Virus record (IMG/VR): IMGVR_UViG_3300026549_000054
Location: 32,001 to 96,000 of that record
DNA from: a virus
Lineage: Duplodnaviria > Caudoviricetes
Direction: 5' to 3' (one strand)
Length of the DNA: 64,000 nucleotides
Below are positions 31,919-53,960 of the stretch, one piece after another (the first letter of the stretch is position 1; the number at the start of each line of letters is the position of its first letter). The notes under the pieces are model-generated. The model made no database searches, had not been told where the DNA came from, and saw nothing but the letters and a program-made list of their open reading frames with translations. The translations under genes were made by a program, and so were the position numbers.

Positions 31919-32563
31919 TTAAGCCTTCTTGGCTTCGGCCTTTGGAGCCTGTGGCTTCTTACCACGCTTCTTGGCATTGAAAGCCTTCGTCAAGAAGATA
32001 AGACCGCCACCTTCGGAAACCAGCTTATCATTGATGAACAACTTACGGCCGAACACACGCTTGTGTGCATTCTTCATTGGCTTTACATGACCCATTTCAA
32101 GACGGAAATCACCCTGTGGAACCTTACCCGTGAGAGTAGTGTCAGTCATGGTAAATTCGTCCTTGTGGTCCTTAATGTAGGCACACATAGACTTAATTTC
32201 GGAGAAATCAACATCTACAGTGAGACGCTGGCGAGGAGCCTTCGTAGTTGTCAATCCGTGGACAATCTTATACAAATACTCCTTCTTGTATTCGCCCAGT
32301 TCAACCTTCTGTTCCGCACCGTCCACAACGCGGTAGAGTTCACGCTTCTTGAACTGCTTGCCACTCTTACCAGTCTTGGCAACGAGCTTCACAATGTAGT
32401 CATTGACCTTGGAATCAACTTCAACACTCGGGAATCGCCAGGAGTTGTCATCAATCTTGACGATAGACTGCTTGTTGGTTGAAACCATATCACGGAGCTT
32501 ACTTGCTAGAAGTTCGCGGGAGTTCATCTTTGTTGGCTGAGCCATAGTTGAATTAGTTTTCAT
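31919..32563 (-). CDS. basic early protein
   Basis: strongly biased codon usage, AAGGA RBS, promoter at 32610-32638. Confidence 0.75.
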   Translation of the reverse strand: MKTNSTMAQPTKMNSRELLASKLRDMVSTNKQSIVKIDDNSWRFPSVEVDSKVNDYIVKLVAKTGKSGKQFKKRELYRVVDGAEQKVELGEYKKEYLYKIVHGLTTTKAPRQRLTVDVDFSEIKSMCAYIKDHKDEFTMTDTTLTGKVPQGDFRLEMGHVKPMKNAHKRVFGRKLFINDKLVSEGGGLIFLTKAFNAKKRGKKPQAPKAEAKKA

Positions 32564-33891: not shown

Positions 33892-33908
33892 AGTTATCCT
33901 TTATGTAA

Positions 33909-33991
33909 CGGAAGGTGAGGGACTTGAACCCCCAAGGGATTTCTCCCGGCAGATTAGTAATCTGCTGCTTTACCAATTAAGCTAACCTTCC
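33909..33991 (-). tRNA. tRNA-Ser(ACT), A34
   Basis: GGAAGGT/ACCTTCC acceptor, GCAGA-TTACTAA-TCTGC anticodon arm, long variable arm, G73. Confidence 0.85.
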
Positions 33992-34000
33992 ATAAATCCG

Positions 34001-34156
34001 TTAGTAATCGTACTTTTCGGATTGTTTCTTTTCAGTCTTTTCCTTCTTAATTCCAGCTTGTTTTGCGAAAGACTTTGCCATCTTTCTCATCTTTTCCCAG
34101 CGTGCCTGTTTCTGTTCTTCAGTTTCTTTTTCTTTTACTTCTTTTCTCTTTTTCAT
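34001..34156 (-). CDS. 51-aa K/E-rich peptide
   Basis: MKKRKEVKEKETEEQKQARWEKMRK...YDY*; AAGGA RBS. Confidence 0.55.
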   Translation of the reverse strand: MKKRKEVKEKETEEQKQARWEKMRKMAKSFAKQAGIKKEKTEKKQSEKYDY

Positions 34157-34175
34157 CTTGTTTTCCTTCAAAAAG

Positions 34176-34346
34176 TTAGGGTATTGGTCTGCGCCCAGCG
34201 ATAGTTGAGTTGCTACCTAAACCATACATTCTCTTTCAAATCTTCGTGCCTTGCGACAAGGATAACTCACCAAACCTTTCACAGAGGTCTTACTGCGGGC
34301 TTCTTGAACACGCATTCTAGAACTGTGTGCAGAGAATTATACCCAA
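34176..34346 (-). ncRNA. candidate structured RNA (about 170 nt)
   Basis: closing GGGTAT/ATACCC stem plus internal hairpins; GC-rich; no ORF on the transcribed strand. Confidence 0.4.
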
Positions 34347-34364
34347 TTCTGTTTATAAAAATAG

Positions 34365-34481
34365 CGGGTGCCGGGGATTTGAACCACCACCTGGATGTTA
34401 TATATTACTATATTAAATGTAATATATGTTTTAATCTATTATTATATCTCTAATGTCCCGTACTACTTATACGAAGCACCC
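34365..34481 (-). ncRNA. tRNA-like RNA with a long AT-rich insert replacing the anticodon loop
   Basis: GGGTGCT/GGCACCC acceptor, CGTA/TACG D-stem, GGTTCAAATCC T-loop; promoter at 34567-34595. Confidence 0.6.
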
Positions 34482-34633
34482 ATCGTTTTAAGGCAAACCA
34501 ATTAGCCAATCCTATACAGCTACCACTTCAAGGGACTAATTGTAAACCATTTCATTCTATGTCTATAATATAGTTTATTATTTATAATTTGACAATACCC
34601 ATTTGAACATTTTTGTTTCAAGTGAGAACTTAC

Positions 34634-34660
34634 AAAAATCCCTCCCACGGATGGGAGGGA
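34634..34660 (-). terminator. intrinsic terminator
   Basis: TCCCTCCCA-TCCG-TGGGAGGGA-TTTTT. Confidence 0.8.
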
Positions 34661-34682
34661 TTGGAGGTAACAACAAAATTCG

Positions 34683-34850
34683 TTAGGTCACGGGACGTTC
34701 GTCAATCTCGGTATCGGCCAAGAAAGAACCAAACTGCTTGATGATCTTCTGTCGGTCTGCTTCAGCATCCGCCTTATTCTTACGGACAGACCAAATCATA
34801 CGGCGGTCCGGTTTATCGTTAGTGTTGTAAGTTACTACAAATACGTTCAT
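34683..34850 (-). CDS. 55-aa hypothetical protein
   Basis: MNVFVVTYNT...ERPVT*; GAGG RBS. Confidence 0.6.
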   Translation of the reverse strand: MNVFVVTYNTNDKPDRRMIWSVRKNKADAEADRQKIIKQFGSFLADTEIDERPVT

Positions 34851-34871
34851 ATTTTTACCTCTCTTTTTAAA

Positions 34872-35396
34872 TTAAAATCCCAAACGGCGGGCGGCAGTAC
34901 CCAAATTGCGGAGCTGTGCGGTGTAATTTGCCATATTAACCAAAGACATACCATTCACAGTATAATCTTCAACCTTCTTTGCGAACCGTTCGTAATGTTC
35001 ATTAAGAATCATAGCACACTTCACAAAAGCATTGATGCCATTCGGAACATACTTCAACATTTCCAAATGAGCGGGTTCATACACGAAATCAAAGAAACTC
35101 TGCTGGACACCACTTTCGCTCTTAAACAGAGCACGAACTTCATTTGTCTTCGCATGGTTTTCCTGAATCAGTTCGTTAGACTTCTTGTCAAACATCTGCC
35201 ACAGAAGGTCAAGGTCCTTGTTTTCGGGTCGGCGAGATGCTGCCATAAAATTGTAATTACCTTCAACCTTTTCAATCATATCAATCATAAGGTCCTTCAT
35301 AGTGCGAACATTGTGTTCAAAGTTGGCTCGGAACATATTGAGAGCCATTTCGGAAGTGGAAGAATTGATGTTGATGTTGATATTGATTGTTGTCAT
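34872..35396 (-). CDS. early hypothetical protein
   Basis: GAGGTAACAACT-ATG RBS; promoter at 35427-35455. Confidence 0.75.
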   Translation of the reverse strand: MTTININININSSTSEMALNMFRANFEHNVRTMKDLMIDMIEKVEGNYNFMAASRRPENKDLDLLWQMFDKKSNELIQENHAKTNEVRALFKSESGVQQSFFDFVYEPAHLEMLKYVPNGINAFVKCAMILNEHYERFAKKVEDYTVNGMSLVNMANYTAQLRNLGTAARRLGF

Positions 35397-35426
35397 AGTT
35401 GTTACCTCTTTTATTATTGTATTACA

Positions 35427-35492
35427 AATATAGTTAAAACTATGAACCTTGTCAATAAGAACTGCGCATTTTTATGTAAAATTTCGTTTACA
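35427..35492 (-). promoter_or_regulatory. sigma70-type promoter with TGTAAA-N6-TTTACA box
   Basis: TTGACA-17 nt-TATATT; perfect box at 35475-35492. Confidence 0.8.
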
Positions 35493-35496
35493 AATG

Positions 35497-35871
35497 CTAA
35501 AAATCTTTCTTAATTTTGGCTAATTTCGCTCTTTCCGCTAATGTTTTTATCCTTAATGCCATTTTTTGAAACTTTTTATCAACCTTTTCGGGTGTAATTT
35601 CGTTATACATTTCATCGTCTGCCCAATCTACTGTTACTTCATCCGCAGTCGCAATCCCATCTTTAGTAATATAAAATTTAGAATAGAACTGAATTTCTTC
35701 TAATTTTGGCTTATATTCGTCAAAGTCTAGAACTGCCAATACATTCCTGCTATCTGTATTATTCGTTAATGAGGACTTTGAATACACATACAGACATCTT
35801 TTATCTTTAGTTAGTTCTTCACAGAAAAGTCCATTCTTTTCCAGGATAGGTAGTAATTCTTCATAAGTCAT
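35497..35871 (-). CDS. DF-tail family protein
   Basis: ends KLAKIKKDF*. Confidence 0.7.
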   Translation of the reverse strand: MTYEELLPILEKNGLFCEELTKDKRCLYVYSKSSLTNNTDSRNVLAVLDFDEYKPKLEEIQFYSKFYITKDGIATADEVTVDWADDEMYNEITPEKVDKKFQKMALRIKTLAERAKLAKIKKDF

Positions 35872-35888
35872 AGTTTATTCCTTTTAAT

Positions 35889-35921
35889 AAAAAAAAGCAC
35901 CCTAACATTCGCTAGGGTGCT
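35889..35921 (-). terminator. terminator closing tRNA cluster 1
   Basis: AGCACCCTAG..TTAGGGTGCT followed by a T tract. Confidence 0.8.
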
Positions 35922-36024
35922 CTGAGTTGAACAACAACCCAAGGAGGTAACAACAATTTCAATAGATTTTCTTTTGATCGGTGGAGAAAATTGTAAAGAA
36001 CCAATTTATCGCGTTGCAAATTTA

Positions 36025-36097
36025 TAGCGGGGACCGGACTTGAACCGGTGACCTTTAGGTTATGAGCCTACTGAGCTACCAACTGCTCTACCCCGCG
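36025..36097 (-). tRNA. tRNA-Met(CAT), initiator-like
   Basis: CGCGGGG 5' end with unpaired C1; CTCATAA loop. Confidence 0.9.
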
Positions 36098-36257
36098 ATG
36101 AGTAAAATTTGGAGAAACATACAAAACTCCAGGTAAAAGGGGATTCTCAACCAACTAAGTCCAATGTTGAGTTTGTATATTTTTTAAACACACTGGTGAA
36201 AATGCTACCCCAACTTGGTCTGTCACATCCAAGTGTTCACAGATTATGCCACAAAGC

Positions 36258-36917
36258 CTAGCAAGTAACACCATTAATCTTTTCTTTGATTTGTTTCCAA
36301 GTTAAATTATCTTTATCCAAAATAATTATTCGTATTCCATTCTGTTGTTGAACTTTTTCAATTTTTTCAACATCAGTTATTCCAAATCGTTTGGACTCAT
36401 TGTTAATCAAATAATCATTTTTAGGGTCAAGATATACATTATATTCAGGAAGATAAAAATCAGGATAATAACGATGTTTTACACCATTAGAATCTTCCCA
36501 AAGATAATAAGTAGGTCTTTCCCATTTAACCTGGTTATCGTCAAGTTCTTTTGCTACTTCAAATTCATATTGAGAATCTAGTTTAATACCTTTATATTCA
36601 ATAGTTTTTGAAGTATGCCAACCGCCTAAATGTCTTTCAAATGCGATTTCACTCATACGTTGTTTAAATTCTTCTGTATGAGCACGTCCAAAAATTCGTT
36701 TACCTTCTTCAGTACCTTTGTATAATCTTGAAGTAGTTTCACCATATTTTCGTACACGTTCGTCGGTTTCTTTAGTCAATCCTTTGTTCCAAGCTTTAAG
36801 TCCGATAGTATGACTAACATAATTTCTATCAGGATTTTTAGGGCAAGTTCTTTCGTGATTTCTTAAAGAATTCGCATTTTTACATTCTTTTCCGCAAAAT
36901 TTACAAATAAATTCCAT
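36258..36917 (-). CDS. free-standing endonuclease (Zn finger plus PD-(D/E)xK)
   Basis: CKFCGK..HERTC, WNKGLTKETD and YYPDFYLPEYNVYLDPK motifs. Confidence 0.7.
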   Translation of the reverse strand: MEFICKFCGKECKNANSLRNHERTCPKNPDRNYVSHTIGLKAWNKGLTKETDERVRKYGETTSRLYKGTEEGKRIFGRAHTEEFKQRMSEIAFERHLGGWHTSKTIEYKGIKLDSQYEFEVAKELDDNQVKWERPTYYLWEDSNGVKHRYYPDFYLPEYNVYLDPKNDYLINNESKRFGITDVEKIEKVQQQNGIRIIILDKDNLTWKQIKEKINGVTC

Positions 36918-36951
36918 ATTATATGTATATTTTGGTAGAGCAGTTGATTAA

Positions 36952-37032
36952 AGCCGGAGAGAGGATTCGGACCTCCGAAGCTTTCGCGGCTGATTACAAA
37001 TCAGCTCCATTTGTCCACTTTGGTACTCCGGC
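36952..37032 (-). tRNA. tRNA-Thr(TGT) with long variable arm
   Basis: GCCGGAG/CTCCGGC acceptor, GCTGA-TTTGTAA-TCAGC anticodon arm, variable arm CGCGAAAGCTT. Confidence 0.85.
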
Positions 37033-37129
37033 AATTTAAAGATTTGGGTAGTTCAAAGCACTACCCAGCTTGCGGGAACCCTTATCAGGGGTATCGCTCC
37101 ACATAGGTTAAGCCTATGACTCTTTTTCG

Positions 37130-37214
37130 CTCTAGAGGCAGGACTCGAACCTGCGGCGGACTTGCGTCAAGAGATTAACAGTCTCCCCCCTGCTACCAGC
37201 TCGGGTACCCTAGA
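37130..37214 (-). tRNA. tRNA-Asn(GTT) with long variable arm
   Basis: GGAGA-CTGTTAA-TCTCT anticodon arm, variable arm GAC-GCAA-GTC, G73. Confidence 0.85.
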
Positions 37215-37229
37215 ATAAATCTAATCAAA

Positions 37230-37750
37230 TCCGTGGTATCTTCGGAGCCTCACACTTCCGAAGTTGTTTGTGGGCAAAACAAGAGGGCAACCACCCACAA
37301 AGCAAGCCAAACCACCGTGGCTCCCGCATGAAAAATCAACCAGACACACATACAAGACTTGGCACACTTGTAATAATATATTCAAACATTATTCTGTCAT
37401 CACTAACCATTTACTCTGGAGCGACCGTTTCAATGTATTGTCAGTGTTGGGATTTTCACACAAAAGATAGGAACCGATGCCTAAACAATAGCTTCACTAT
37501 CTACCGATTTCTTCATCATTGGCCTGTGCGACTATTAGTGAACTCTACCGCCACAGTAGTTTCGTACCAATAGGTCCCTGGGATTTCACCAAATACCTAT
37601 TGGATAATAACCATCACATAATGAATACTCACGCACATTATGTTTTTACGAATACATTATACCTACTTCCATACCTTTTCAGTATTTCCATAGTCCCTTC
37701 AAGCTCGGTTGGAACCTGTGTTAGGGGAATGTATGTCTGGTTGATTTCTC
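37230..37750 (-). ncRNA. candidate large structured ncRNA
   Basis: 14-bp inverted repeat 37333-37346/37734-37747 enclosing several hairpins. Confidence 0.55.
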
Positions 37751-37840
37751 AACCTTCGTTTTTTATTTATAGTTTTTGTTAAGGTCAGTGCTAATTAACT
37801 ACCTAGTACTTTTAAACTACAGTCCATAACAAAAGAGTAG

Positions 37841-37922
37841 TCGGTAAGGTGGGACTTGAACCCACACCCCTCTCGGGACCGGATTTTGAGTCCGGCGCGT
37901 CTACCAATTCCGCCACCTACCG
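37841..37922 (-). tRNA. tRNA-Leu(CAA)
   Basis: CCGGA-CTCAAAA-TCCGG; long variable arm; A73. Confidence 0.92.
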
Positions 37923-37924
37923 GT

Positions 37925-38633
37925 TTATTCGTAAACCCCTATTAAATCTTTATTGGATGGAAAATTAAATCTATTATGTTTGGTTTTGTTTGATAGATTT
38001 CTAAAATAAGGAATCCATTTTCTAAACTTTCTTCTACATTCTACGATGTTATTTTCTTCTCCAAATTTTGAAACACAATCCCAATTTTCAGAATGATATT
38101 TGTTCCATAATTTTCTATAAAATTCTTTTTGCGTTACTTTTATTTTTTCATTTTCGCCATGAAACAAATTTCTTCCTTCAATCCAAGTTTCATCAGGTGC
38201 GACAATAAAATGTTTACATTCACCAGTGTTTCTATTTGTGAACCAATGTTTACCAAAATGAGAATTATTAACACCACCTTGTTTTACTTTCATATTTTCT
38301 CGGTGAACATTAACATATTCTTTTCTAAGTAATTCATAAGCTCTAGCATTTATATATCTTTCACATTTTTGTGTTGGTTTTAATTTCATACTCCAAAAAG
38401 CATATAACATTTTCTTTCGTTCATTTGAACCTTTTGGATATATTTTAATCAGTAGCCAATGACATATAAAATGTTCTCTTGGTGTTAGTAACACCATATT
38501 ATAAGAATTGTTAACACCACCTAAACTTTTAGGTAATATATGATGATTCTCATAATAGTTAGACGAGCCGCTTGGTTCTATTTTCACACCTTGCGTTAAA
38601 AATAATTCTCAAATAAATTTCTCTATAATTCAT
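37925..38633 (-). pseudogene. HNH endonuclease, apparently frameshifted near the 5' end
   Basis: HHILPKSLGG..N..LTPREHFICH in frame 37925-38587; the typical MNYREIY..II N-terminus starts at 38633 in another frame. Confidence 0.6.
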
Positions 38634-38652
38634 AATGTATTTATTTTTTCTT

Positions 38653-38730
38653 TGGAGCGGGTGACGGGAATCGGACCCACACCATCTGACACCGGATATG
38701 CCAGTACTCTACCAATTAAGCTACACCCGC
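38653..38730 (-). tRNA. atypical tRNA-Gly(TCC)
   Basis: GCGGGTG/CACCCGC-T-CCA; 6-bp anticodon stem with loop TATCCGG. Confidence 0.7.
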
Positions 38731-38764
38731 CCAAATAGAGGACTATTCCGTCTCAACATTTAGT

Positions 38765-38793
38765 AATATAGTAAAATCTATTCTCATTGTCAA
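38765..38793 (-). promoter_or_regulatory. sigma70-type promoter inside tRNA cluster 1
   Basis: TTGACA-17 nt-TATATT. Confidence 0.7.
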
Positions 38794-38837
38794 TAGTGTT
38801 TGTATTTTCTTTGTTTCAAGTTAAACTTCTGTTTTCG

Positions 38838-38921
38838 TGGGTCCGGAGAGATTTGAACTCTCAATCCTTTGCAGGCTTTCGGGTTTAAGCCGAAATTGTA
38901 TACCAGTTCCAACACGAACCC
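38838..38921 (-). tRNA. tRNA-Leu(TAA)
   Basis: TTCGG-CTTAAAC-CCGAA; long variable arm. Confidence 0.9.
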
Positions 38922-38928
38922 AGTTTAG

Positions 38929-39002
38929 TCCACACTCAGGGACTTGAACCCCGGACCCGTGCCTTATAAGAGCGCTGCTCTCACCAACTGAGCTAAGTGT
39001 GG
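38929..39002 (-). tRNA. tRNA-Ile(TAT)
   Basis: loop CTTATAA; CCACACT/AGTGTGG acceptor; A73. Confidence 0.88.
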
Positions 39003-39069
39003 ATTTAGTTTGTCTTAATATCGCAGTTACTCTCTGCTTGGGGGATTCGCACCCGCCGTTACATTTTCG

Positions 39070-39144
39070 TTGAGGTGGCTGGATTCGGACCAGCGAATAC
39101 AGGAGTCAAGGTCCTGTGCCTTAGACCAGCTTGGCGACACCTCA
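39070..39144 (-). tRNA. tRNA-Gln(TTG)
   Basis: CAGGA-CCTTGAC-TCCTG (C33). Confidence 0.88.
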
Positions 39145-39380
39145 GAGTTTGATGAATTGGTGATTACGGACATCCATCAGGTCCGTGGTACGAACTTTAT
39201 CACCTAAGTCATGCTGTCCGATTAGAGGGTCTCGGGTAGGATTCTTTATTTCGCAATCTGTTTTTACGGGGAGCCAGCGCCCATGCCCCAACCTGTTTTT
39301 TGCCTCTAGCGAAACGGTTGTGAACCTTGCAGCAAGATTTGACTCTCGCCACTAATCGCTTGTAAACTAATCAGCATTAG

Positions 39381-39454
39381 TACACCCGGCAGGATTTGAA
39401 CCTGCGACCCTCTGTTTAGAAGACAGATGCTCTATCCAACTGAGCTACGGGTGC
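39381..39454 (-). tRNA. tRNA-Arg(TCT)
   Basis: TCTGT-CTTCTAA-ACAGA. Confidence 0.93.
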
Positions 39455-39664
39455 ATAAGACCAGTGTTGTTGCACTTACTTCACCTGTGCGATACATCGC
39501 AGCCTTTTCAACTTTGTCTTAAAAAGCTCATTTGTGTTAGATTGGTTACTAACATCGCCCGCGGAGTGCTATCTTCTCTGCCGAGTTGTTTGCACCATAC
39601 AGTTGCCGCCGGAGTACTAAGGATATGTGCTATTAACACATACTCATTTATACTAACAAATTAG

Positions 39665-39749
39665 TGCTAGCTGGTGGATTCGGACCACCGAAAGCCCAGG
39701 GGGCGGGAAATTTACAGTCTCCAGGAATTGACCACTATCCGAAACTAGC
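39665..39749 (-). tRNA. tRNA-Tyr(GTA)
   Basis: GGAGA-CTGTAAA-TTTCC; long variable arm. Confidence 0.88.
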
Positions 39750-40086
39750 ATATCAAAAACTTTCGTTGGTTTGCGAGAGTTCCAACTTCTCAGTGGGCTA
39801 CCACCTTTGCGTTGCAGGGCTACCTGCTATTGCGTTTTAAATGCGGGCCCCATTGTCATACAAAATAATTCGTACCAACGGGGTACTCGGTCCATGCTTC
39901 GGCTCTGTTTTATTCCTTGCATGATTCCAACATTCGTATAAAACCGGTGGAACTAGCAGAAAACTATCCTAGGTTTCGTTTCTGTTGTTCTAGTTCCATT
40001 TGAGTTATATTGTCTTTGGGCTTCACCATTCTTCTTACTATCTTACCCAACCAAGTACCGGGAAGGTCCCCTTTAGGCAGTGTTAA

Positions 40087-40161
40087 TGGTATCTGTGGAG
40101 GTGGTTGAATGTCCTCAATCTCCGGTGGTTACCGGTGTTTTTCCTGAAAAACTTCACAGGT
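40087..40161 (-). pseudogene. degenerate tRNA-like element (AAC in the loop, encoded CCA)
   Basis: ACCTGTG/CACAGAT-A-CCA; CCGG-TAACCA-CCGG; aberrant T arm. Confidence 0.45.
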
Positions 40162-40170
40162 GTTTAATAG

Positions 40171-40809
40171 TTAGTGTTCCAATGAACTACTCAAATTAAA
40201 GTCATAAAAATCTAAAAACAATTCAATTTTATCTTTCATCATTAGTTTGCCATCATTAGTTTTTATTTCATTCCAAGCAATACGATAGACAAAATAACCT
40301 TGTTTTCTTAAAAATTCATCTCTTATAGTATCAGATTCTTTTCTGTCTTTATATTTGTGTTGTTTGCCATCAATTTCTAAATCTATATTTCCAATAACAA
40401 AATCTAAAAAGTATTTTCCGACTTTCTTTTCACGATTATATTTTATTTTGTTATTATTTAATACAGTTTCAAAAAATCGTTCCGCATAAGATTTTATATT
40501 TCGTGTAGTCCAACCTTTATGTGTTCCATTTTGAACTTTTTCAAGTTGGATTTTACGAAGTTTTTCTTTTTGTTTATCAGAAATTTTCTTATGTTTTCTA
40601 CAACATATTTGACAGTATCCAGTACTATTTCTTCTTTCTAATTTGGTGTGACAATCTAAACAAAATTTATCTGGCAATCGTTTTAACTGCTTTGAAATTT
40701 TCTGTTTTTGTTCTTCAGTGTGTTTTCTTTTGTTAGCACAACTTCTAGAACAAAATCGTCCAGAACCAAATACTGAAAGCATTTCTTTTCCGCAACATTC
40801 ACATTTCAT
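40171..40809 (-). CDS. Zn-finger plus DUF559/Vsr-like endonuclease
   Basis: MKCECCGK, FCSRSCA and YFLDF..LEIDGKQH motifs; start corrected to 40809. Confidence 0.75.
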   Translation of the reverse strand: MKCECCGKEMLSVFGSGRFCSRSCANKRKHTEEQKQKISKQLKRLPDKFCLDCHTKLERRNSTGYCQICCRKHKKISDKQKEKLRKIQLEKVQNGTHKGWTTRNIKSYAERFFETVLNNNKIKYNREKKVGKYFLDFVIGNIDLEIDGKQHKYKDRKESDTIRDEFLRKQGYFVYRIAWNEIKTNDGKLMMKDKIELFLDFYDFNLSSSLEH

Positions 40810-40814
40810 ATTCG

Positions 40815-40889
40815 TCGGGATAGCTGGATTTGAACCAGCAATCTCTCGGTCCCAAGCCGAGCGACTTAACCAGGTTAGCCTATACCCCG
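40815..40889 (-). tRNA. tRNA-Pro(TGG)
   Basis: CTCGG-CTTGGGA-CCGAG; C1. Confidence 0.92.
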
Positions 40890-41027
40890 AGTTTCCGTGT
40901 GTCAAATCATCCTGCATTTATCGGAGCAGCGCCGGAGGCCTTCACATTCATCTTTTAGACGGGCGGGGACGAATCAACTGCTTTAGGAAGTGACAGACTA
41001 ACGTCCCGCTTGATTTGATTTTTTTTC

Positions 41028-41063
41028 GTGAGGATGGCGGGGGTCGGACCCGCGACCATCACT
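41028..41063 (-). pseudogene. orphan 3' half of a tRNA
   Basis: AGTGA-TGGTC-GCGGG-TCCGACC-CCCGC-CATCCTC-A; overlaps the stop codon of the endonuclease. Confidence 0.6.
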
Positions 41064-41718
41064 CAAGTTTTTCAAAAACTAATTTCAAGTATTCAGATTT
41101 CTTTTCTTTTGACAAATGTTTAAATTCACTCCATCTCACTCTTTCTATACAAGTCCATCCATTTTCTAAAAGTTTTTGGGTTCTAACTTTATCGTGTTCA
41201 ACTATTCGTTTATCCAAATAATGTTGTTCACCATCAACTTCTAAATAGATTTTCTTTTCAGGCCAAGCAAAATCAAGGAAATAACCACACTGATAATAAT
41301 TTTGTTTATATTCAATATGTTCATTATCAAAAACTTCTTTGAAGTATTTCTCTGGGTAACTATCACCTTTTGAATGGTGGTTAATCAAATATGGAACTTT
41401 ATCAGGATGTTCAATCAAATACTGTTTTCGTCCTTCCGAAATTTTCTTTTTATGTTCATCACTATGATGTGTTCCAGTATTAGGATTCACTAATCGTCCA
41501 GATTTATAACCTTCGCTTAAAGTTTCACCTCTCTGTTTTACTCTCTTATCAGTTTCTTTTGTTAAACCCTTATTCCAAGCATCGTGAGTTGCGTTCCATT
41601 TTACAAATGGTGAAATTTTCCTGTTAGGATTTTTCTTACACAACCTTTCGTGATTTCTTAATGAATTTGGGTTTAAGCACGGTTTTCCACAAAATTTACA
41701 AATACAATCATTTTCCAT
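41059..41718 (-). CDS. Zn-finger plus DUF559/Vsr-like endonuclease
   Basis: CKFCGK..HERLC and YFLDFAW...EVDGEQH motifs. Confidence 0.75.
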   Translation of the reverse strand: MENDCICKFCGKPCLNPNSLRNHERLCKKNPNRKISPFVKWNATHDAWNKGLTKETDKRVKQRGETLSEGYKSGRLVNPNTGTHHSDEHKKKISEGRKQYLIEHPDKVPYLINHHSKGDSYPEKYFKEVFDNEHIEYKQNYYQCGYFLDFAWPEKKIYLEVDGEQHYLDKRIVEHDKVRTQKLLENGWTCIERVRWSEFKHLSKEKKSEYLKLVFEKLE

Positions 41719-41761
41719 ATTGTATTTATAATTCGGTAGAGTATCGTACTTGTATCTCTTA

Positions 41762-41833
41762 TGCGGCCAACGGGACTCGAACCCGTGTCCCTAGATTAAA
41801 AGTCTAGTGCTTCACCATCAAAGCTTTAGCCAC
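41762..41833 (-). tRNA. tRNA-Lys(TTT)
   Basis: CTAGA-CTTTTAA-TCTAG. Confidence 0.92.
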
Positions 41834-41997
41834 ATAACGAGAGTTTTAACGAGTTTTCTTTCTCAACCCTATTTTCACGTCTCCAAAACATATATTTGGA
41901 TTTAAGCAGCCGTTAGGCATACATTATCGTCGGGTTATCTGGTTCCAAATTTTCAATCTTCTCATTGGTTTCACGAACCAATCTCATTGTATTCACT

Positions 41998-42063
41998 AAT
42001 ATAGAAAAATCTATTTGGTTTGTCAACCGTTTTTAGTGATTTTTTTGTAAATTGTAATTTACA
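41998..42063 (-). promoter_or_regulatory. sigma70-type promoter with TGTAAA-N6-TTTACA box
   Basis: TTGACA-17 nt-TATATT; box at 42046-42063. Confidence 0.75.
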
Positions 42064-42182: not shown

Positions 42183-42249
42183 AATATAGTAACTAACTAC
42201 ATCCTTGTCAATCCCATTTTGTTAATTTTATTGTAAATTTTTCTAAACA
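42183..42249 (-). promoter_or_regulatory. sigma70-type promoter with degenerate box
   Basis: TTGACA (42211-42206)-17 nt-TATATT. Confidence 0.7.
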
Positions 42250-42330
42250 AAAAACCGCAACATTTTTTATGTCGCGGTATCCTGTTCTCCTTCTAGAAAG
42301 AAATAATTAACTTACACAACAGAAATACCG
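42249..42330 (-). promoter_or_regulatory. attenuator (terminator/antiterminator) upstream of tRNA cluster 1
   Basis: terminator ACCGCGACAT-AAAAA-ATGTTGCGGT-TTTTT; leader segment GCGGTATTTCTGTT can pair with AACAGGATACCGC. Confidence 0.75.
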
Positions 42331-42386
42331 CTATCCTCCAAATAGTGTTTAGGCAATCTAACTTGTGTATTAATTATTAAATTCAT
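42312..42386 (-). CDS. 24-aa leader peptide of tRNA cluster 1
   Basis: MNLIINTQVRLPKHYLEDSGISVV*; codons match cluster-1 anticodons. Confidence 0.75.
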   Translation of the reverse strand: MNLIINTQVRLPKHYLEDSGISVV

Positions 42387-42407
42387 ATTGTATATATAAT
42401 AAATTTT

Positions 42408-42923
42408 TTAGAAATCTTGACCCATTCGTACTTTTCTGTATAATTCTTTACTTAGCTTTTCCCATTTGTACATAAAGGCATCAATCTTGTCCTTATGAGT
42501 ATGAGTATCTGCTTTACTCTTAATTGGCAGTTTACGATAATCGTCAATGAGTTCCTTGGCGGCTTTTAGATTTTCTACATTATATGTTTCAAAACGAATA
42601 CTGCCACCTAATGCTGGAACCCAATGTCCGAAATTTACCACATAATTAGGTTTATTATCGTGTACTTTACCAGGTCCCCAAAACGCAAATTCTCTATAAG
42701 AAGATGAAGGTTCTTGTTGTATCATACATATAGGTATCAGACGAGCCACTTTAACTTCCAGTGAAATCGGGAGTGTATGATTTATAAGGTTGTTATGAAC
42801 TACTTCATCTCCCCACAAGAAATTACTTTCCCAACCTTTCAAGATGAAAATGTCGGAGTCATTAACTGTATACTGTGTAAGAATGTTAATTACATCTTTA
42901 CAAGCAGATAATGCAGGTTTCAT
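42408..42923 (-). CDS. DF-tail family protein
   Basis: ends RKVRMGQDF*. Confidence 0.7.
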   Translation of the reverse strand: MKPALSACKDVINILTQYTVNDSDIFILKGWESNFLWGDEVVHNNLINHTLPISLEVKVARLIPICMIQQEPSSSYREFAFWGPGKVHDNKPNYVVNFGHWVPALGGSIRFETYNVENLKAAKELIDDYRKLPIKSKADTHTHKDKIDAFMYKWEKLSKELYRKVRMGQDF

Positions 42924-48784: not shown

Positions 48785-49226
48785 ATTTTCTATAAAGGAG
48801 AATTAAATCTTTTTGGGCAACCGGGAAGTTTGAAACTTCAGCCTATTTAGGAACACTAGAACTGAAGTTTTTGATTCTTTTTGGTATAACGTATGAAGAA
48901 TCACTTCTGTGGGATTTACGAATAAGCTTATGGGTCGGTCTTCCTGTACTCCAGCTACATCTTATTCAACCAAGGCGGCTATGTGTTAAACTTGCGAAGT
49001 TTAACTACGATGTTAGATTTTCAATGATAGTTTACTCAGTCTTCAAACCTTTTAACCTATCCAAGTGTGTAACTAACTTTTACACATATTGGCTATCCCT
49101 CTACCGATAGTGGCATTGAATTGTACTTCGTTCCGAGGAAATAGACTTTCAAATGTCAATAGCCAAATATAGTAATTATTACTTTATGTGTAAAAAATTT
49201 TAAAAATTTTTGATCTGCAGAATTAG

Positions 49227-49298
49227 AGCCCTATACCAGATTCGGACTGGTGCCACCTGCTTGGAAGGCAGAAATGCTAACCACTACACCAATAGGAC
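49227..49298 (-). tRNA. tRNA-Gly(TCC)
   Basis: loop CTTCCAA; U73. Confidence 0.9.
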
Positions 49299-49302
49299 AG
49301 TA

Positions 49303-49378
49303 TCTCCCCTACTGGAGTCGTACCAGTGTTATTTTTCGGTGTAAACGAAGTGCCATAAACCATCTAGGCGAAGGGGAG
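49303..49378 (-). tRNA. tRNA-Val(TAC)
   Basis: loop TTTACAC; A73. Confidence 0.82.
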
Positions 49379-49382
49379 TTAG

Positions 49383-49451
49383 TTGCAGGTATGGGTGCCG
49401 ACACCACTGCCACAAAGATATGAGCTTCGTGTGTATGCCGATACCCCTGCA
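49383..49451 (-). tRNA. degenerate tRNA-Met(CAT)
   Basis: CGAAG-CTCATAT-CTTTG; reduced D arm and aberrant T arm. Confidence 0.5.
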
Positions 49452-49455
49452 ATAG

Positions 49456-49526
49456 TTGTTCGTGCTGGAATCGGACCAACATTAAGTGATTCAGAGTCAC
49501 CTGTACTACCGTTATACTAACGAACA
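49456..49526 (-). tRNA. tRNA-Gln(CTG)
   Basis: GGTGA-CTCTGAA-TCACT. Confidence 0.9.
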
Positions 49527-49534
49527 ATAATTTA

Positions 49535-49606
49535 TCCCAATGCCGGAGAACGATTCCGAACTACAAGTGCCACAAACTTGTGTGCTACCAATTACACCAC
49601 ATCAGG
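49535..49606 (-). tRNA. tRNA-His(GTG), atypical T loop
   Basis: CAAGT-TTGTGGC-ACTTG; no obvious G-1:C73. Confidence 0.7.
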
Positions 49607-49616
49607 GATGAAGTAG

Positions 49617-49689
49617 TGCTCCATCAAGGACTCGGACCTTGGACTCGCTGATTAAGAGTCAGCTACTCTACCAACTGAGTTAATGGAGC
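49617..49689 (-). tRNA. tRNA-Lys(CTT)
   Basis: GCTGA-CTCTTAA-TCAGC. Confidence 0.92.
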
Positions 49690-50316
49690 ATTAGTAATAA
49701 AATCTATAATTTTTTCAACATATTTTTGTTTTTCTTCTAATGATAATTTTTGGTATTCGGCCCAATTACATCTACCAATTAAAGTCCATCCTTCACTTGA
49801 TAAATTTTGAGTTCTTTTATTATCATATAGTTTTCCTTCTTCTGTATAATGTGTCCTTCCATCTACTTCAAAATATATTTTCTTTTCAGGCCAAGCAAAA
49901 TCTAACCAATAAGGTTTAACATAATAATTATTTTCAAAATTTATATTTTTGTTTGTAAAAATGTTAAACCAACTTTGTTCTGCATAACTTCTTTGTCTTC
50001 GCCCTATCCAAGAACTTGCTCTACCTTCTTTGTGTGCTTTTATCATTCCTTTTGATATATTTTTTCTTCCTTGCTCAGACATAATATATTTTTTATATGG
50101 TATTTTATTTGGATTTAATTCACAATGTTTTTCGTGATTAATCATTGTTGATTTTGTTGTATATTTTGAAAAACCACAAAATTTACAAGATAAATTATAT
50201 TTTGGTTGTTGTCCTCCATTATTTAATATATTATGAACTTTTATTTTATGACTGTATAATTCTTTCTTATCATCAAAGATTTCTTTACATATTTTACATT
50301 TATATTTTAATTTCAT
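49663..50316 (-). CDS. Zn-finger plus DUF559/Vsr-like endonuclease
   Basis: two C2H2/C2HC-like fingers; YWLDFAW..EVDGRTH; the ORF ends inside tRNA-Lys. Confidence 0.75.
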   Translation of the reverse strand: MKLKYKCKICKEIFDDKKELYSHKIKVHNILNNGGQQPKYNLSCKFCGFSKYTTKSTMINHEKHCELNPNKIPYKKYIMSEQGRKNISKGMIKAHKEGRASSWIGRRQRSYAEQSWFNIFTNKNINFENNYYVKPYWLDFAWPEKKIYFEVDGRTHYTEEGKLYDNKRTQNLSSEGWTLIGRCNWAEYQKLSLEEKQKYVEKIIDFITNAPLTQLVE

Positions 50317-50331
50317 ATTTTTATTTATTTA

Positions 50332-50405
50332 AGCACACTGAGGGATTTGAACCCCCGAATCGCGGAGTTGCAGTCCGCTGCATTACCAGGCTTTGCTAAG
50401 TGTGC
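50332..50405 (-). tRNA. tRNA-Cys(GCA)
   Basis: GCGGA-CTGCAAC-TCCGC; U73. Confidence 0.92.
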
Positions 50406-50465
50406 GAATTGATTACTGTGGAAATTTATTTAAATGGCGACGTATCCTCCACCACAGTAATCTTA

Positions 50466-50539
50466 AGTGGCTACTGGGATTTGAACCCAGGTAACCTGTT
50501 TGGTAAACAGGCTCATTAACCAGACTATGATATAGCCAC
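50466..50539 (-). tRNA. tRNA-Gly(ACC), A34
   Basis: CCTGT-TTACCAA-ACAGG; U73. Confidence 0.85.
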
Positions 50540-50548
50540 ATTTGTTCG

Positions 50549-50623
50549 TACATCTGATAGGAGTTGAACCTATATCACATCGGCGTTCGTAGCACCGGAC
50601 TCTTCCAATTAAGCTACAGATGC
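50549..50623 (-). tRNA. tRNA-Arg(ACG)
   Basis: CGGTG-CTACGAA-CGCCG. Confidence 0.88.
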
Positions 50624-50629
50624 ATTTAG

Positions 50630-50716
50630 AGGAGGTAGAAGGATTTGAACCCTCGTGTGATTTCTCACCCACTGTTTTCAGGACAGGTCCGATAAGCCAG
50701 GCTCCGGCATACCTCC
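50630..50716 (-). tRNA. tRNA-Ser(TGA)
   Basis: loop CCTGAAA; long variable arm. Confidence 0.88.
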
Positions 50717-50720
50717 ATAA

Positions 50721-50794
50721 TCGCCCAGGTGGGACTCGAACCCACAAAATTCTGCTTCTAAGGCAGACACGTATACCAGTTCCATCACCGGGCG
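50721..50794 (-). tRNA. tRNA-Leu(TAG) with short variable loop
   Basis: TCTGC-CTTAGAA-GCAGA; variable loop ATTTT; A73. Confidence 0.88.
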
Positions 50795-50808
50795 TTAATT
50801 TGTTTTAA

Positions 50809-50879
50809 CAGAAGTACCAGGACTCGGACCCAGACGAACAGACTTGGAAACTGCCATGCTACCGTTACATCATACTCCT
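50809..50879 (-). tRNA. tRNA-Trp(CCA)
   Basis: loop TTCCAAG; G73. Confidence 0.88.
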
Positions 50880-50885
50880 ATTTAG

Positions 50886-50959
50886 CGACATCGGCGGGAT
50901 TCGGACCCGCGAATGATGGTTAGACAGACCACTGTGTTAGACCACTTCACCACGATGCC
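50886..50959 (-). tRNA. tRNA-Asp(GTC)
   Basis: loop CTGTCTA; G73. Confidence 0.9.
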
Positions 50960-50965
50960 ATATAG

Positions 50966-51040
50966 TCCATAGGGATGGATTTGAACCATCAGTCTCCACC
51001 TTATCAGAGTGGCAAACGGAACCAGTCGTTATGCCTATGG
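50966..51040 (-). tRNA. tRNA-Ile(GAT)
   Basis: CCACT-CTGATAA-GGTGG. Confidence 0.85.
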
Positions 51041-51052
51041 ATAATTTGTTAG

Positions 51053-51125
51053 TGCCGCCCTCCCGTAACGATCGGGAATCTCAGGATTTTCAGTCCCGCG
51101 CATAGACCATCTTTGCTAGAGCGGC
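51053..51125 (-). tRNA. tRNA-Phe(GAA)
   Basis: CGGGA-CTGAAAA-TCCTG; variant T loop. Confidence 0.85.
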
Positions 51126-51129
51126 ATAG

Positions 51130-51203
51130 TGGATACATACGGGATTCGGACCCGTGACCTCTTCAGTGCTAATGAAGCGCTCTTCCAACTGAGCTAATGA
51201 CCC
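51130..51203 (-). tRNA. tRNA-Ala(AGC), A34
   Basis: CTTCA-TTAGCAC-TGAAG; G3:U70. Confidence 0.85.
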
Positions 51204-51212
51204 AAAAGTTTA

Positions 51213-51287
51213 TGGACACATAAGGGATTTGAACCCTTGACATCCTGCGTGCAAGGCAGGCGTTCTACCAAACTGAACTAATGGCCC
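51213..51287 (-). tRNA. tRNA-Ala(TGC)
   Basis: CCTGC-CTTGCAC-GCAGG; G3:U70. Confidence 0.9.
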
Positions 51288-51294
51288 GTTTTCG

Positions 51295-51366
51295 TAGTAC
51301 ATTCGGGAGTCGGACCCGAGTTTCCGCCTTGAAAGGGCAGCGAACTAACCACTATTCTAATGTACC
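51295..51366 (-). tRNA. tRNA-Glu(TTC)
   Basis: CTGCC-CTTTCAA-GGCGG. Confidence 0.88.
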
Positions 51367-51373
51367 ATATTCG

Positions 51374-51447
51374 TAGTGCTATCCGGATTTGAACCGGAGT
51401 TTTAAGAGTGAAATTCTTATGTCCTAACCAAACTAGACGATAGCACC
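51374..51447 (-). tRNA. tRNA-Glu(TTC)
   Basis: TAAGA-ATTTCAC-TCTTA. Confidence 0.88.
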
Positions 51448-51449
51448 AT

Positions 51450-51535
51450 AAAAGAAAAATCCCGTGGTTTGTGTTCCACAGGATTTAATTTGTTACGCCG
51501 GAAAATTATAACTAATCAAATGCCTGTGTAGAACC
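51450..51535 (-). promoter_or_regulatory. attenuator (terminator/antiterminator) directly upstream of tRNA cluster 2
   Basis: terminator AAATCCTGTGG-AACACAAA-CCACGGGATTT-TTCTTTT; leader segment GTTCTACACAGGCATTT can pair with AAATCCTGTGGAAC. Confidence 0.82.
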
Positions 51536-51625
51536 TCTATCTTCGCCTGCGACTGCACCTTCAAATCGTTCGTCAATGGCGAACCAATCCTGTGCGAGGC
51601 AAATGTGGGACTTAAGCATCATCAT
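51512..51625 (-). CDS. 37-aa leader peptide of tRNA cluster 2
   Basis: MMMLKSHICLAQDWFAIDERFEGAVAGEDRGSTQAFD*; AAGGA RBS; codons match cluster-2 anticodons. Confidence 0.8.
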   Translation of the reverse strand: MMMLKSHICLAQDWFAIDERFEGAVAGEDRGSTQAFD

Positions 51626-51753
51626 AATTTCTTTTTTCCTTATATTGTATATATAACTTTTAATTTCTGTTTTTTGATTCTTTTGTTAAACACATCCAAA
51701 ATAATTGTTATTGGTTTTTCAACCGCTACACAATCATTTTGTTTACATAGACA

Positions 51754-53870: not shown

Positions 53871-53960
53871 AAGAAAAAAGGTGGTTTTCCCATTTAGTTG
53901 AGAAAACCACCCTCAACCACCAATAAGGAAATTTGGGCATTATACCCAAAACGAATTAGA

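Follow-up and report, generated by a model that had tools for sequence, protein, structure and literature searches.

How does a phage set the level of its own tRNAs? To our knowledge this is not known, and the question is raised by a leader that precedes a block of tRNA genes in a T4-like phage. The locus lies on the minus strand of a 64,000-nucleotide stretch of DNA (the window), positions 32,001 to 96,000 of IMG/VR virus record IMGVR_UViG_3300026549_000054. An open reading frame (ORF) of 24 codons and an intrinsic terminator stand there upstream of 13 tRNA genes (cluster 1), and a companion leader precedes the phage's other tRNA block (cluster 2). Phage tRNAs have come to be viewed as a means of countering the loss of host tRNAs and defences that cut tRNA (PMC10264068, PMC11464382). 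Searches of literature listings and abstracts turned up no account of tRNA genes controlled through a leader peptide.

A preliminary description of this DNA proposed that the leader is a transcription attenuator whose ORF is written in the codons of the tRNAs downstream. Does the leader RNA contain a switch? If so, does a ribosome operate it, and in response to which tRNAs? Here we show that the leader can form three mutually exclusive helices, and that a diverged homologue builds the antiterminator from changed letters. The leader is probably a functional terminator/antiterminator switch. That the switch is read by ribosomes, as a leader-peptide type of attenuator, we propose tentatively and with somewhat less than even confidence.

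A leader with three mutually exclusive helices

The leader has the following parts.

42385..42399, minus strand: late-promoter-like motif TTATATATACAATAT; its final two bases supply the AT of the start codon ATG (TATATATA-CAAT-ATG)
42386-42312, minus strand: leader ORF of 24 codons, peptide MNLIINTQVRLPKHYLEDSGISVV; it lacks a Shine-Dalgarno sequence and is presumed leaderless
42352..42378, minus strand: segment 1 (anti-antiterminator), codons 3-12; pairs with 42329-42302 in the minimum free energy (MFE) fold
42302..42331, minus strand: segment 2; 42331-42318 pairs with segment 3 and 42329-42302 with segment 1; holds the stop codon TAA
42274..42286, minus strand: segment 3 (AACAGGATACCGC); overlaps the first 5 nt (ACCGC) of the terminator's 5' arm
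42246..42278, minus strand: intrinsic terminator, stem 42278-42254 and U tract 42253-42246; -13.9 kcal/mol

The ORF claimed in the preliminary description is present as it was read. So are the terminator, whose stem of 10 pairs (5 G-C) is followed by TTTTTTGTTT, and the antiterminator, in which GCGGTATTTCTGTT (42331-42318) pairs with segment 3 through 13 base pairs and one bulge. Folded whole, the leader (42400-42240) reaches -40.9 kcal/mol (z -4.9), a value matched by 0 of 200 shuffles. This MFE fold contains a further helix that had gone unremarked: the 5' half of the ORF (42378-42352) pairs with the 3' end of the ORF (42329-42302). This pairing brings the mutually exclusive helices of the leader to three (1:2, 2:3 and 3:4), as in trp. 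Their energies are -18.8 kcal/mol for 1:2, -17.5 to -18.0 for 2:3 and -13.9 for the terminator. The stop codon (42314-42312) lies 3 nt past the 2:3 strand and within the 1:2 strand, so placed that a terminating ribosome would mask segment 2; its placement is alike in the diverged homologue, L017, and in the companion leader.

The element could also be an ordinary operon end. Helix 1:2 and the terminator would then merely end and stabilise the upstream early transcript, the tRNAs would be driven only by two promoters farther downstream (P1 and P2), and the ORF and helix 2:3 would have no regulatory role. The setting suits this explanation: the upstream gene, encoding a protein of 171 amino acids (aa), has its stop 21 nt before the leader element, the two consensus early promoters restart transcription just past it, and the terminator is thermodynamically dominant. 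The pairing of segments 2 and 3 suits it less well. This duplex has an energy of -18.0 kcal/mol, compared with -8.9 +/- 2.2 in 2000 dinucleotide shuffles (P 0.0025). As a control, the same test was applied to all 29 minus-strand terminator-like sites outside tRNA genes. Strong upstream complementarity was found at three only: 42278 in this leader (z -4.3), 51486 in the companion leader (z -3.5) and 53950 (z -4.5). The other 26 have z above -1.7. Thus 26 of the 27 control sites are without such pairing, which counts against an operon end, while the unrelated site 53950 counts in its favour.

Site 53950 is itself a small terminator-like hairpin (53932-53950, minus strand) after an ATPase gene, the sole control site to resemble both tRNA leaders.

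Conservation and a diverged homologue

Is this arrangement kept in related phages? We compared nine close relatives, eight metagenome loci and one IMG/VR locus (L009); L017 makes 10. The late-promoter-like motif is kept in 10 of 10. The ORF is open at 24 codons in all nine close relatives, including L004, which ends after segment 3, and at 25 codons in L017. All eight close relatives that extend far enough keep the terminator, and six extend far enough to show both early promoters and keep them (L004 and L008 are short, and L005 is cut after P2). In seven relatives the leader is 95-99% identical, as against 76-81% for the adjacent gene in six of these. In the seventh, L009, the adjacent upstream gene is unrelated (43%) and the leader is kept, an observation that does not favour an operon end. 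The leader is 80% identical in L002 and incomplete in L004.

Within the leader, substitutions among close relatives concentrate in codons 2-4, 6, 9 and 11, and indels are confined to positions outside the ORF. The 3' 42 nt of the ORF, apical loop included, are invariant in nucleotide sequence across the nine aligned close relatives. Segment 3 of L002 carries a 3-nt insertion and substitutions, yet 13 of the 14 pairs of helix 2:3 are retained.

L017 was found by scanning genome_contigs with an alignment of the 361-aa neighbour protein; the L017 neighbour is 67% identical. L017 has the same TATATATACAATATG motif, a 25-codon ORF (MIMNNTQIRLPKHYYLIVVSGDYFV), the 1:2 hairpin and the terminator. Compared with the window, its ORF shows two indels, of -3 and +6 nt, and neither breaks the frame. 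Its 2:3 helix is formed from changed letters (GCGGUGA..AUUUUGU with ACAAGAU..UCACCGC) and has an energy of -17.8 kcal/mol, compared with -8.05 +/- 2.1 for shuffled sequences (P 0.0005). One compensatory pair, A-U to G-C, lies in alignable columns, which is weak when taken alone (47 of 500 shuffles reach it), and a second, U-A to A-U, is visible in the fold. Significant 2:3 pairing in two diverged versions, with compensatory changes, is evidence against an operon end. Moreover, in L017 the upstream unit is already closed by a separate terminator-like hairpin directly before the motif. The L017 leader therefore appears to be its own transcription unit and not merely the end of the upstream operon. 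We regard an ordinary operon end as distinctly unlikely.

If the leader is a unit of its own, it might act in trans. In that case it would be a stand-alone late gene or small RNA, with a transcript of ~135 nt running from the TATATATA motif to the terminator and a 24-25-aa peptide, or the RNA itself, as the active product. The L017 version is indeed self-contained and flanked by terminators, and the peptide core NTQ(V/I)RLPKHY is common to the window and L017. Trans functions are reported for an attenuator RNA and a leader peptide of Sinorhizobium, rnTrpL and peTrpL (PMC7968998, 10.1101/606483). Around the core, however, the N- and C-terminal residues diverge radically (L/R/Q at codon 3, V/I/Y at codon 9, LEDSGISVV versus YLIVVSGDYFV) while the pairing nucleotides stay, and trans action leaves the 2:3 complementarity unexplained. 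We consider this explanation very improbable.

Promoter, start codon and the case for translation

A switch of this kind could be thrown without any ribosome. Segment 1 or the invariant apical loop might be bound by a protein of phage or host, by a small RNA or by a tRNA, which would free segment 2, and the ORF would be incidental. The three-helix architecture and its conservation hold without translation, the invariant 3' 42 nt point to a constraint at the RNA level, the ORF lacks a Shine-Dalgarno sequence, and the codon match discussed below is borderline. What argues for translation?

The first argument comes from the promoter. The preliminary description noted an upstream sequence shared by the two leaders, and the 15-mer TTATATATACAATAT indeed occurs exactly only at 42399-42385 and 51656-51642. 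A copy with one mismatch, at 41731-41717, abuts the ATG of an endonuclease-like gene at 41718. The late-promoter motif TATAAATA is found 19 times on the minus strand versus 2 times on the plus strand. In four of the 19 minus-strand copies it is followed by four nucleotides and an ATG that opens one of these genes:

genome C1 97462, minus strand: ORF of 459 aa
genome C1 73730 (window 41730), minus strand: ORF of 219 aa
genome C1 29835, minus strand: ORF of 160 aa
genome C1 23825, minus strand: ORF of 106 aa

The expected number of such TATAAATA-N4-ATG arrangements is 0.46 (P 0.001). The leader shares this layout with the four real genes and has no Shine-Dalgarno sequence; the ordinary genes of the phage carry the Shine-Dalgarno sequence AAGAGGT. 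A leaderless late transcript starting from the leader motif is therefore plausible, and the four gene starts suggest that the phage uses leaderless late messages.

We also considered that the ORF is a relic of the 5' end of a homing endonuclease gene, since the gene at 41718 has the same promoter-ATG layout. This idea was dropped because the peptides look unrelated by eye.

The exact promoter spacing of the leader ATG is thus one point against a switch that ignores the ORF. Another is the preservation of the L017 frame through both of its indels. A third is that each of the two unrelated leaders has its stop codon within or next to segment 2. Finally, Rfam covariance models (T-box and others included) gave no match to 42240-42400 at E up to 1. 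The L017 leader had merely a chance-level match to snoR135 (E 0.22). We judge a real switch that is not read by ribosomes to be unlikely.

Codons of the leader and the tRNAs of cluster 1

If ribosomes read the leader, which tRNAs would they report on? The tRNA genes were located with ARAGORN, which finds 31 in the phage, 13 of them in cluster 1.

33908..41834, minus strand: tRNA cluster 1, 13 tRNAs that decode A/T-rich codons, with endonuclease-like ORFs interspersed; tRNAs Lys ttt, Pro tgg, Tyr gta, Arg tct, Gln ttg, Ile tat, Leu taa, Gly tcc, Leu caa, Asn gtt, Thr tgt, Met cat and Ser act

The preliminary description held that the leader codons cover nearly every cluster-1 anticodon. Under standard wobble 11 of the 13 are touched, but the Pro anticodon TGG, which had been counted, reads the CCT codon only with expanded U34 wobble. 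Compared with chance this coverage is marginal: among 261 genomic ATG ORFs of comparable length 14 reach the same number, and the shuffle P is 0.04. A statistic on the first 16 codons (P 0.0017) was set aside as post hoc. In its place we used a stall window defined by the structure, namely the A-site positions that leave segment 2 free (codons 2-15). Here 10-11 of the 14 codons are cognate to cluster 1, versus 2-3 of 9 outside (Fisher P 0.03-0.04), and under shuffle and genome nulls the match has P 0.03-0.05. In L017, 11-12 of the 15 stall-window codons are cognate to cluster 1. Among the distinct substituted codons in close relatives the figure is 9 of 10 (binomial P 0.013, uncorrected for shared descent).

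The central claim, that the codons of this leader mirror cluster 1, is thus borderline: marginal in the stall window and ordinary in the whole-ORF count. We take the match to be suggestive, and specific sensing of cluster-1 tRNAs by the leader to be doubtful.

A second leader before cluster 2

51450..51656, minus strand: companion leader, with the same 15-mer, a 37-codon ORF at 51625-51512 and a terminator at 51486-51457
49226-51447: tRNA cluster 2, 18 tRNAs (ARAGORN)

The two leaders had been described as otherwise unrelated, and their sequences do differ beyond the 15-mer while their layout is alike. In the companion leader the 2:3 duplex has an energy of -15.6 kcal/mol, compared with -9.2 +/- 1.9 for shuffled sequences (P 0.0045). 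Its stall window contains 22-26 cluster-2 cognate codons among 28 (P 0.0001-0.007), a stronger match than that of the cluster-1 leader. The contrast in codon choice drawn in the preliminary description is borne out as well: AAA, CAA and TTR are used in the cluster-1 leader, as opposed to AAG, CAG and CTY in the companion. In L002 the companion leader has an in-frame gap of 3 nt.

Taken together, the leaders would form a two-channel feedback on the phage's near-complete tRNA set. Two unrelated leader ORFs, each written in the codons of its own block, would serve as sensors that any tRNA is short, and late transcription would top up a block only when ribosomes slow on its codons, for example after the host's tRNAs have been degraded or have fallen to defence nucleases that cut them. 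We offer this as a possibility that is on balance unlikely.

A model for control of late tRNA transcription

How might the cluster-1 leader work? From its architecture we infer the following course. The late-type promoter TATATATA would start the RNA on the A of the ATG or on a base beside it, and the 24-codon ORF would be read as a leaderless message. The RNA would then form one of the three exclusive helices. With no ribosome present, 1:2 would form and the terminator would follow. A ribosome that had reached the stop codon, inside segment 2, would cover that segment, and again the terminator would form. A ribosome lingering on codons 2-15 would cover segment 1 and leave segment 2 free. Free segment 2 could capture segment 3 before the 3' arm of the terminator is made, and RNA polymerase would proceed to cluster 1. 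Since most stall-window codons are read by cluster-1 tRNAs, the likely signal would be slow decoding when those tRNAs are scarce. The block of tRNA genes would in this way be topped up late in infection.

The attenuator interpretation draws its strength from the 1:2 helix, the specificity of 2:3, compensation in L017 and the promoter-ATG layout; the codon mirroring is borderline. Two further features of the locus bear on it.

42183..42211, minus strand: early sigma70-type promoter P1, downstream of the terminator
41998..42026, minus strand: early sigma70-type promoter P2, a sigma70-type consensus match

The preliminary description warned of both promoters. They are there, at 42211-42183 and 42026-41998, each with 11 of 12 consensus positions, and they belong to a set of 16 near-identical TTGACA-N17-TATATT sites, all on the minus strand. 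P1 and P2 could drive the tRNAs without the leader; any control by the leader would therefore concern late transcripts.

Several observations weigh against the leader being a ribosome-read attenuator of cluster 1. The terminator is ~420 nt away from tRNA-Lys at 41834, the first tRNA gene, with P1 and P2 in between, so that the leader does not have regulated genes directly downstream without a promoter of their own. The gap is wider in L017, where tRNA-Lys, Pro, Asn, Tyr and Val lie ~900 nt downstream, past three promoter-like modules. The distant relative L013 (neighbour protein 50% identical) has no such element before its tRNAs. Translation of an ORF without a Shine-Dalgarno sequence is assumed to be leaderless.

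The codons pose difficulties too. Over the whole ORF, 13 of 24 are cognate to cluster 1 under standard wobble, which is ordinary (shuffle P 0.44), and ATT, GTT and CAC within the stall window are non-cluster-1 codons. No tRNA-Ile(tat) is seen in the 14 kb covered of L009, and the ATA codon is kept there nonetheless.

As for the RNA, RNAalifold gave 0 compensatory pairs out of 54 for the nine close sequences, which are too alike to test covariation. Covariation rests on one diverged homologue, L017, and two synonymous AAT-to-AAC changes disrupt a 1:2 pair. Equilibrium folding never favours the antiterminator, whichever codon carries the ribosome mask: the terminator has a probability of at least 0.93 and the antiterminator of at most 0.03. 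Any antitermination must therefore be kinetic. The trp leader is alike in this respect: thermodynamics favours its terminator too, and its antiterminator works kinetically.

Relation to known attenuators

Enterobacteria control several operons through leader-peptide attenuators, among them trpL, hisL, pheL, leuL and the multivalent thrL and ilvL. The phage leader resembles these systems in layout. Both have a short ORF within a leader whose helices 1:2, 2:3 and 3:4 exclude one another, a stop codon that would let the finishing ribosome mask segment 2, and an intrinsic terminator. They differ in what follows, which is tRNA genes here and genes of amino-acid biosynthesis there, and in the candidate sensing codons, which are single copies of about ten different codons here and runs there. 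In the phage, moreover, the message is presumably leaderless and made from a late-type promoter, and the first gene lies ~420 nt and two promoters beyond the terminator. By sequence the phage leader has no homology to a known family: Rfam gave no match at the threshold given above.

Two other systems are comparable in what they sense. The pheST (pheM) attenuator controls an aminoacyl-tRNA synthetase operon. As proposed for the phage, its leader peptide senses the supply of charged tRNA and adjusts how much of a translation component is made; unlike the phage leader, it senses one amino acid, Phe, and its target is a bacterial chromosomal gene for a protein. In T-box riboswitches, too, a choice between terminator and antiterminator reports tRNA status. 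They differ in binding uncharged tRNA through Stem I and the antiterminator bulge and in needing no ORF, and the present element, of only ~140 nt, has no T-box match.

If the attenuator model is right, tRNA supply would be sensed directly, by a leader ORF that gauges the speed of decoding and gates the transcription of tRNA genes. Textbook amino-acid control would extend to the translation machinery itself, with leader-peptide attenuation applied to tRNA genes. The leader is a small element and easy to test.

The phage, its relatives and minor observations

The window is part of a phage contig of 104,766 bp with 34% G+C. Nearly all genes lie on the minus strand, and the contig encodes topoisomerase II, glucosyltransferases and a CCA-adding enzyme. 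Contigs from 22 RNA sequencing runs contain the stretch or part of it; these are bovine and sheep gut metatranscriptomes, and the phage is therefore a rumen phage. Two metatranscriptome contigs, X1 and X2, span the entire leader. Two others, X4 and X6, stop inside the ORF at 42362 and 42367, at polymorphic codons, which shows neither an RNA start nor an RNA end.

For the upstream 171-aa protein we found 34 homologues. Megablast and blastn of the region against the Phage GenBank collection gave no match, and neither did an exact 25-mer in genome_contigs. IMG/VR scans with the 171-aa protein and with its alignment found no relative. Three DNA patterns found L009 alone in IMG/VR, and alignment A4 found only the contig holding L009. 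With the 471-aa protein, the IMG/VR scan returned L009's contig, L012 (which ends before any tRNA) and L013. No leader homologue was seen in L013, L015, L016 or L018. L013 has instead a basic ORF of 50 aa (L013:9406-9558) with a promoter and a Shine-Dalgarno sequence; this ORF stops 5 nt short of the first tRNA, and no terminator intervenes.

The last ~50 nt of the upstream gene in the window (42408-42460, minus strand; tail ...LSKELYRKVRMGQDF) are common to the otherwise unrelated gene at the equivalent place in L009.

The tRNA set is nearly identical across the relatives. At the place of the window's tRNA-Ile(tat), L002 has a tRNA-like sequence (L002:11745-11850) that ARAGORN does not call; it has a TAT anticodon loop, and a long insertion precedes its T arm. 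The apparent loss of this tRNA from L002 is probably an uncalled variant with an insertion.

A non-coding module follows the early promoters that precede tRNA blocks, and not those of protein genes (42176-42110, 41990-41930 and 51747-51690, minus strand; L017:8000-8330, in three copies). It consists of AATGA.TTG, a short hairpin of the GGTT..AACC type, GTAGATTGAAA and TTTGG, and could be a processing or antitermination signal for untranslated transcripts. Between the early promoters and tRNA-Lys, the loci L001, L002, L003, L005 and L017 (at L017:8330-8840, for instance) carry a conserved insertion that is non-coding and several hundred nt long (...GACGAAAATCGGACCCG..GAATCGGGTAGATGG...); it is absent from the window and has no Rfam match.

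Just downstream of tRNA cluster 2, at 48907-49011 (minus strand), there is a full-length Rfam match to cow-rumen-2 RNA (RF02947; 105.6 bits, E 6.6e-20).
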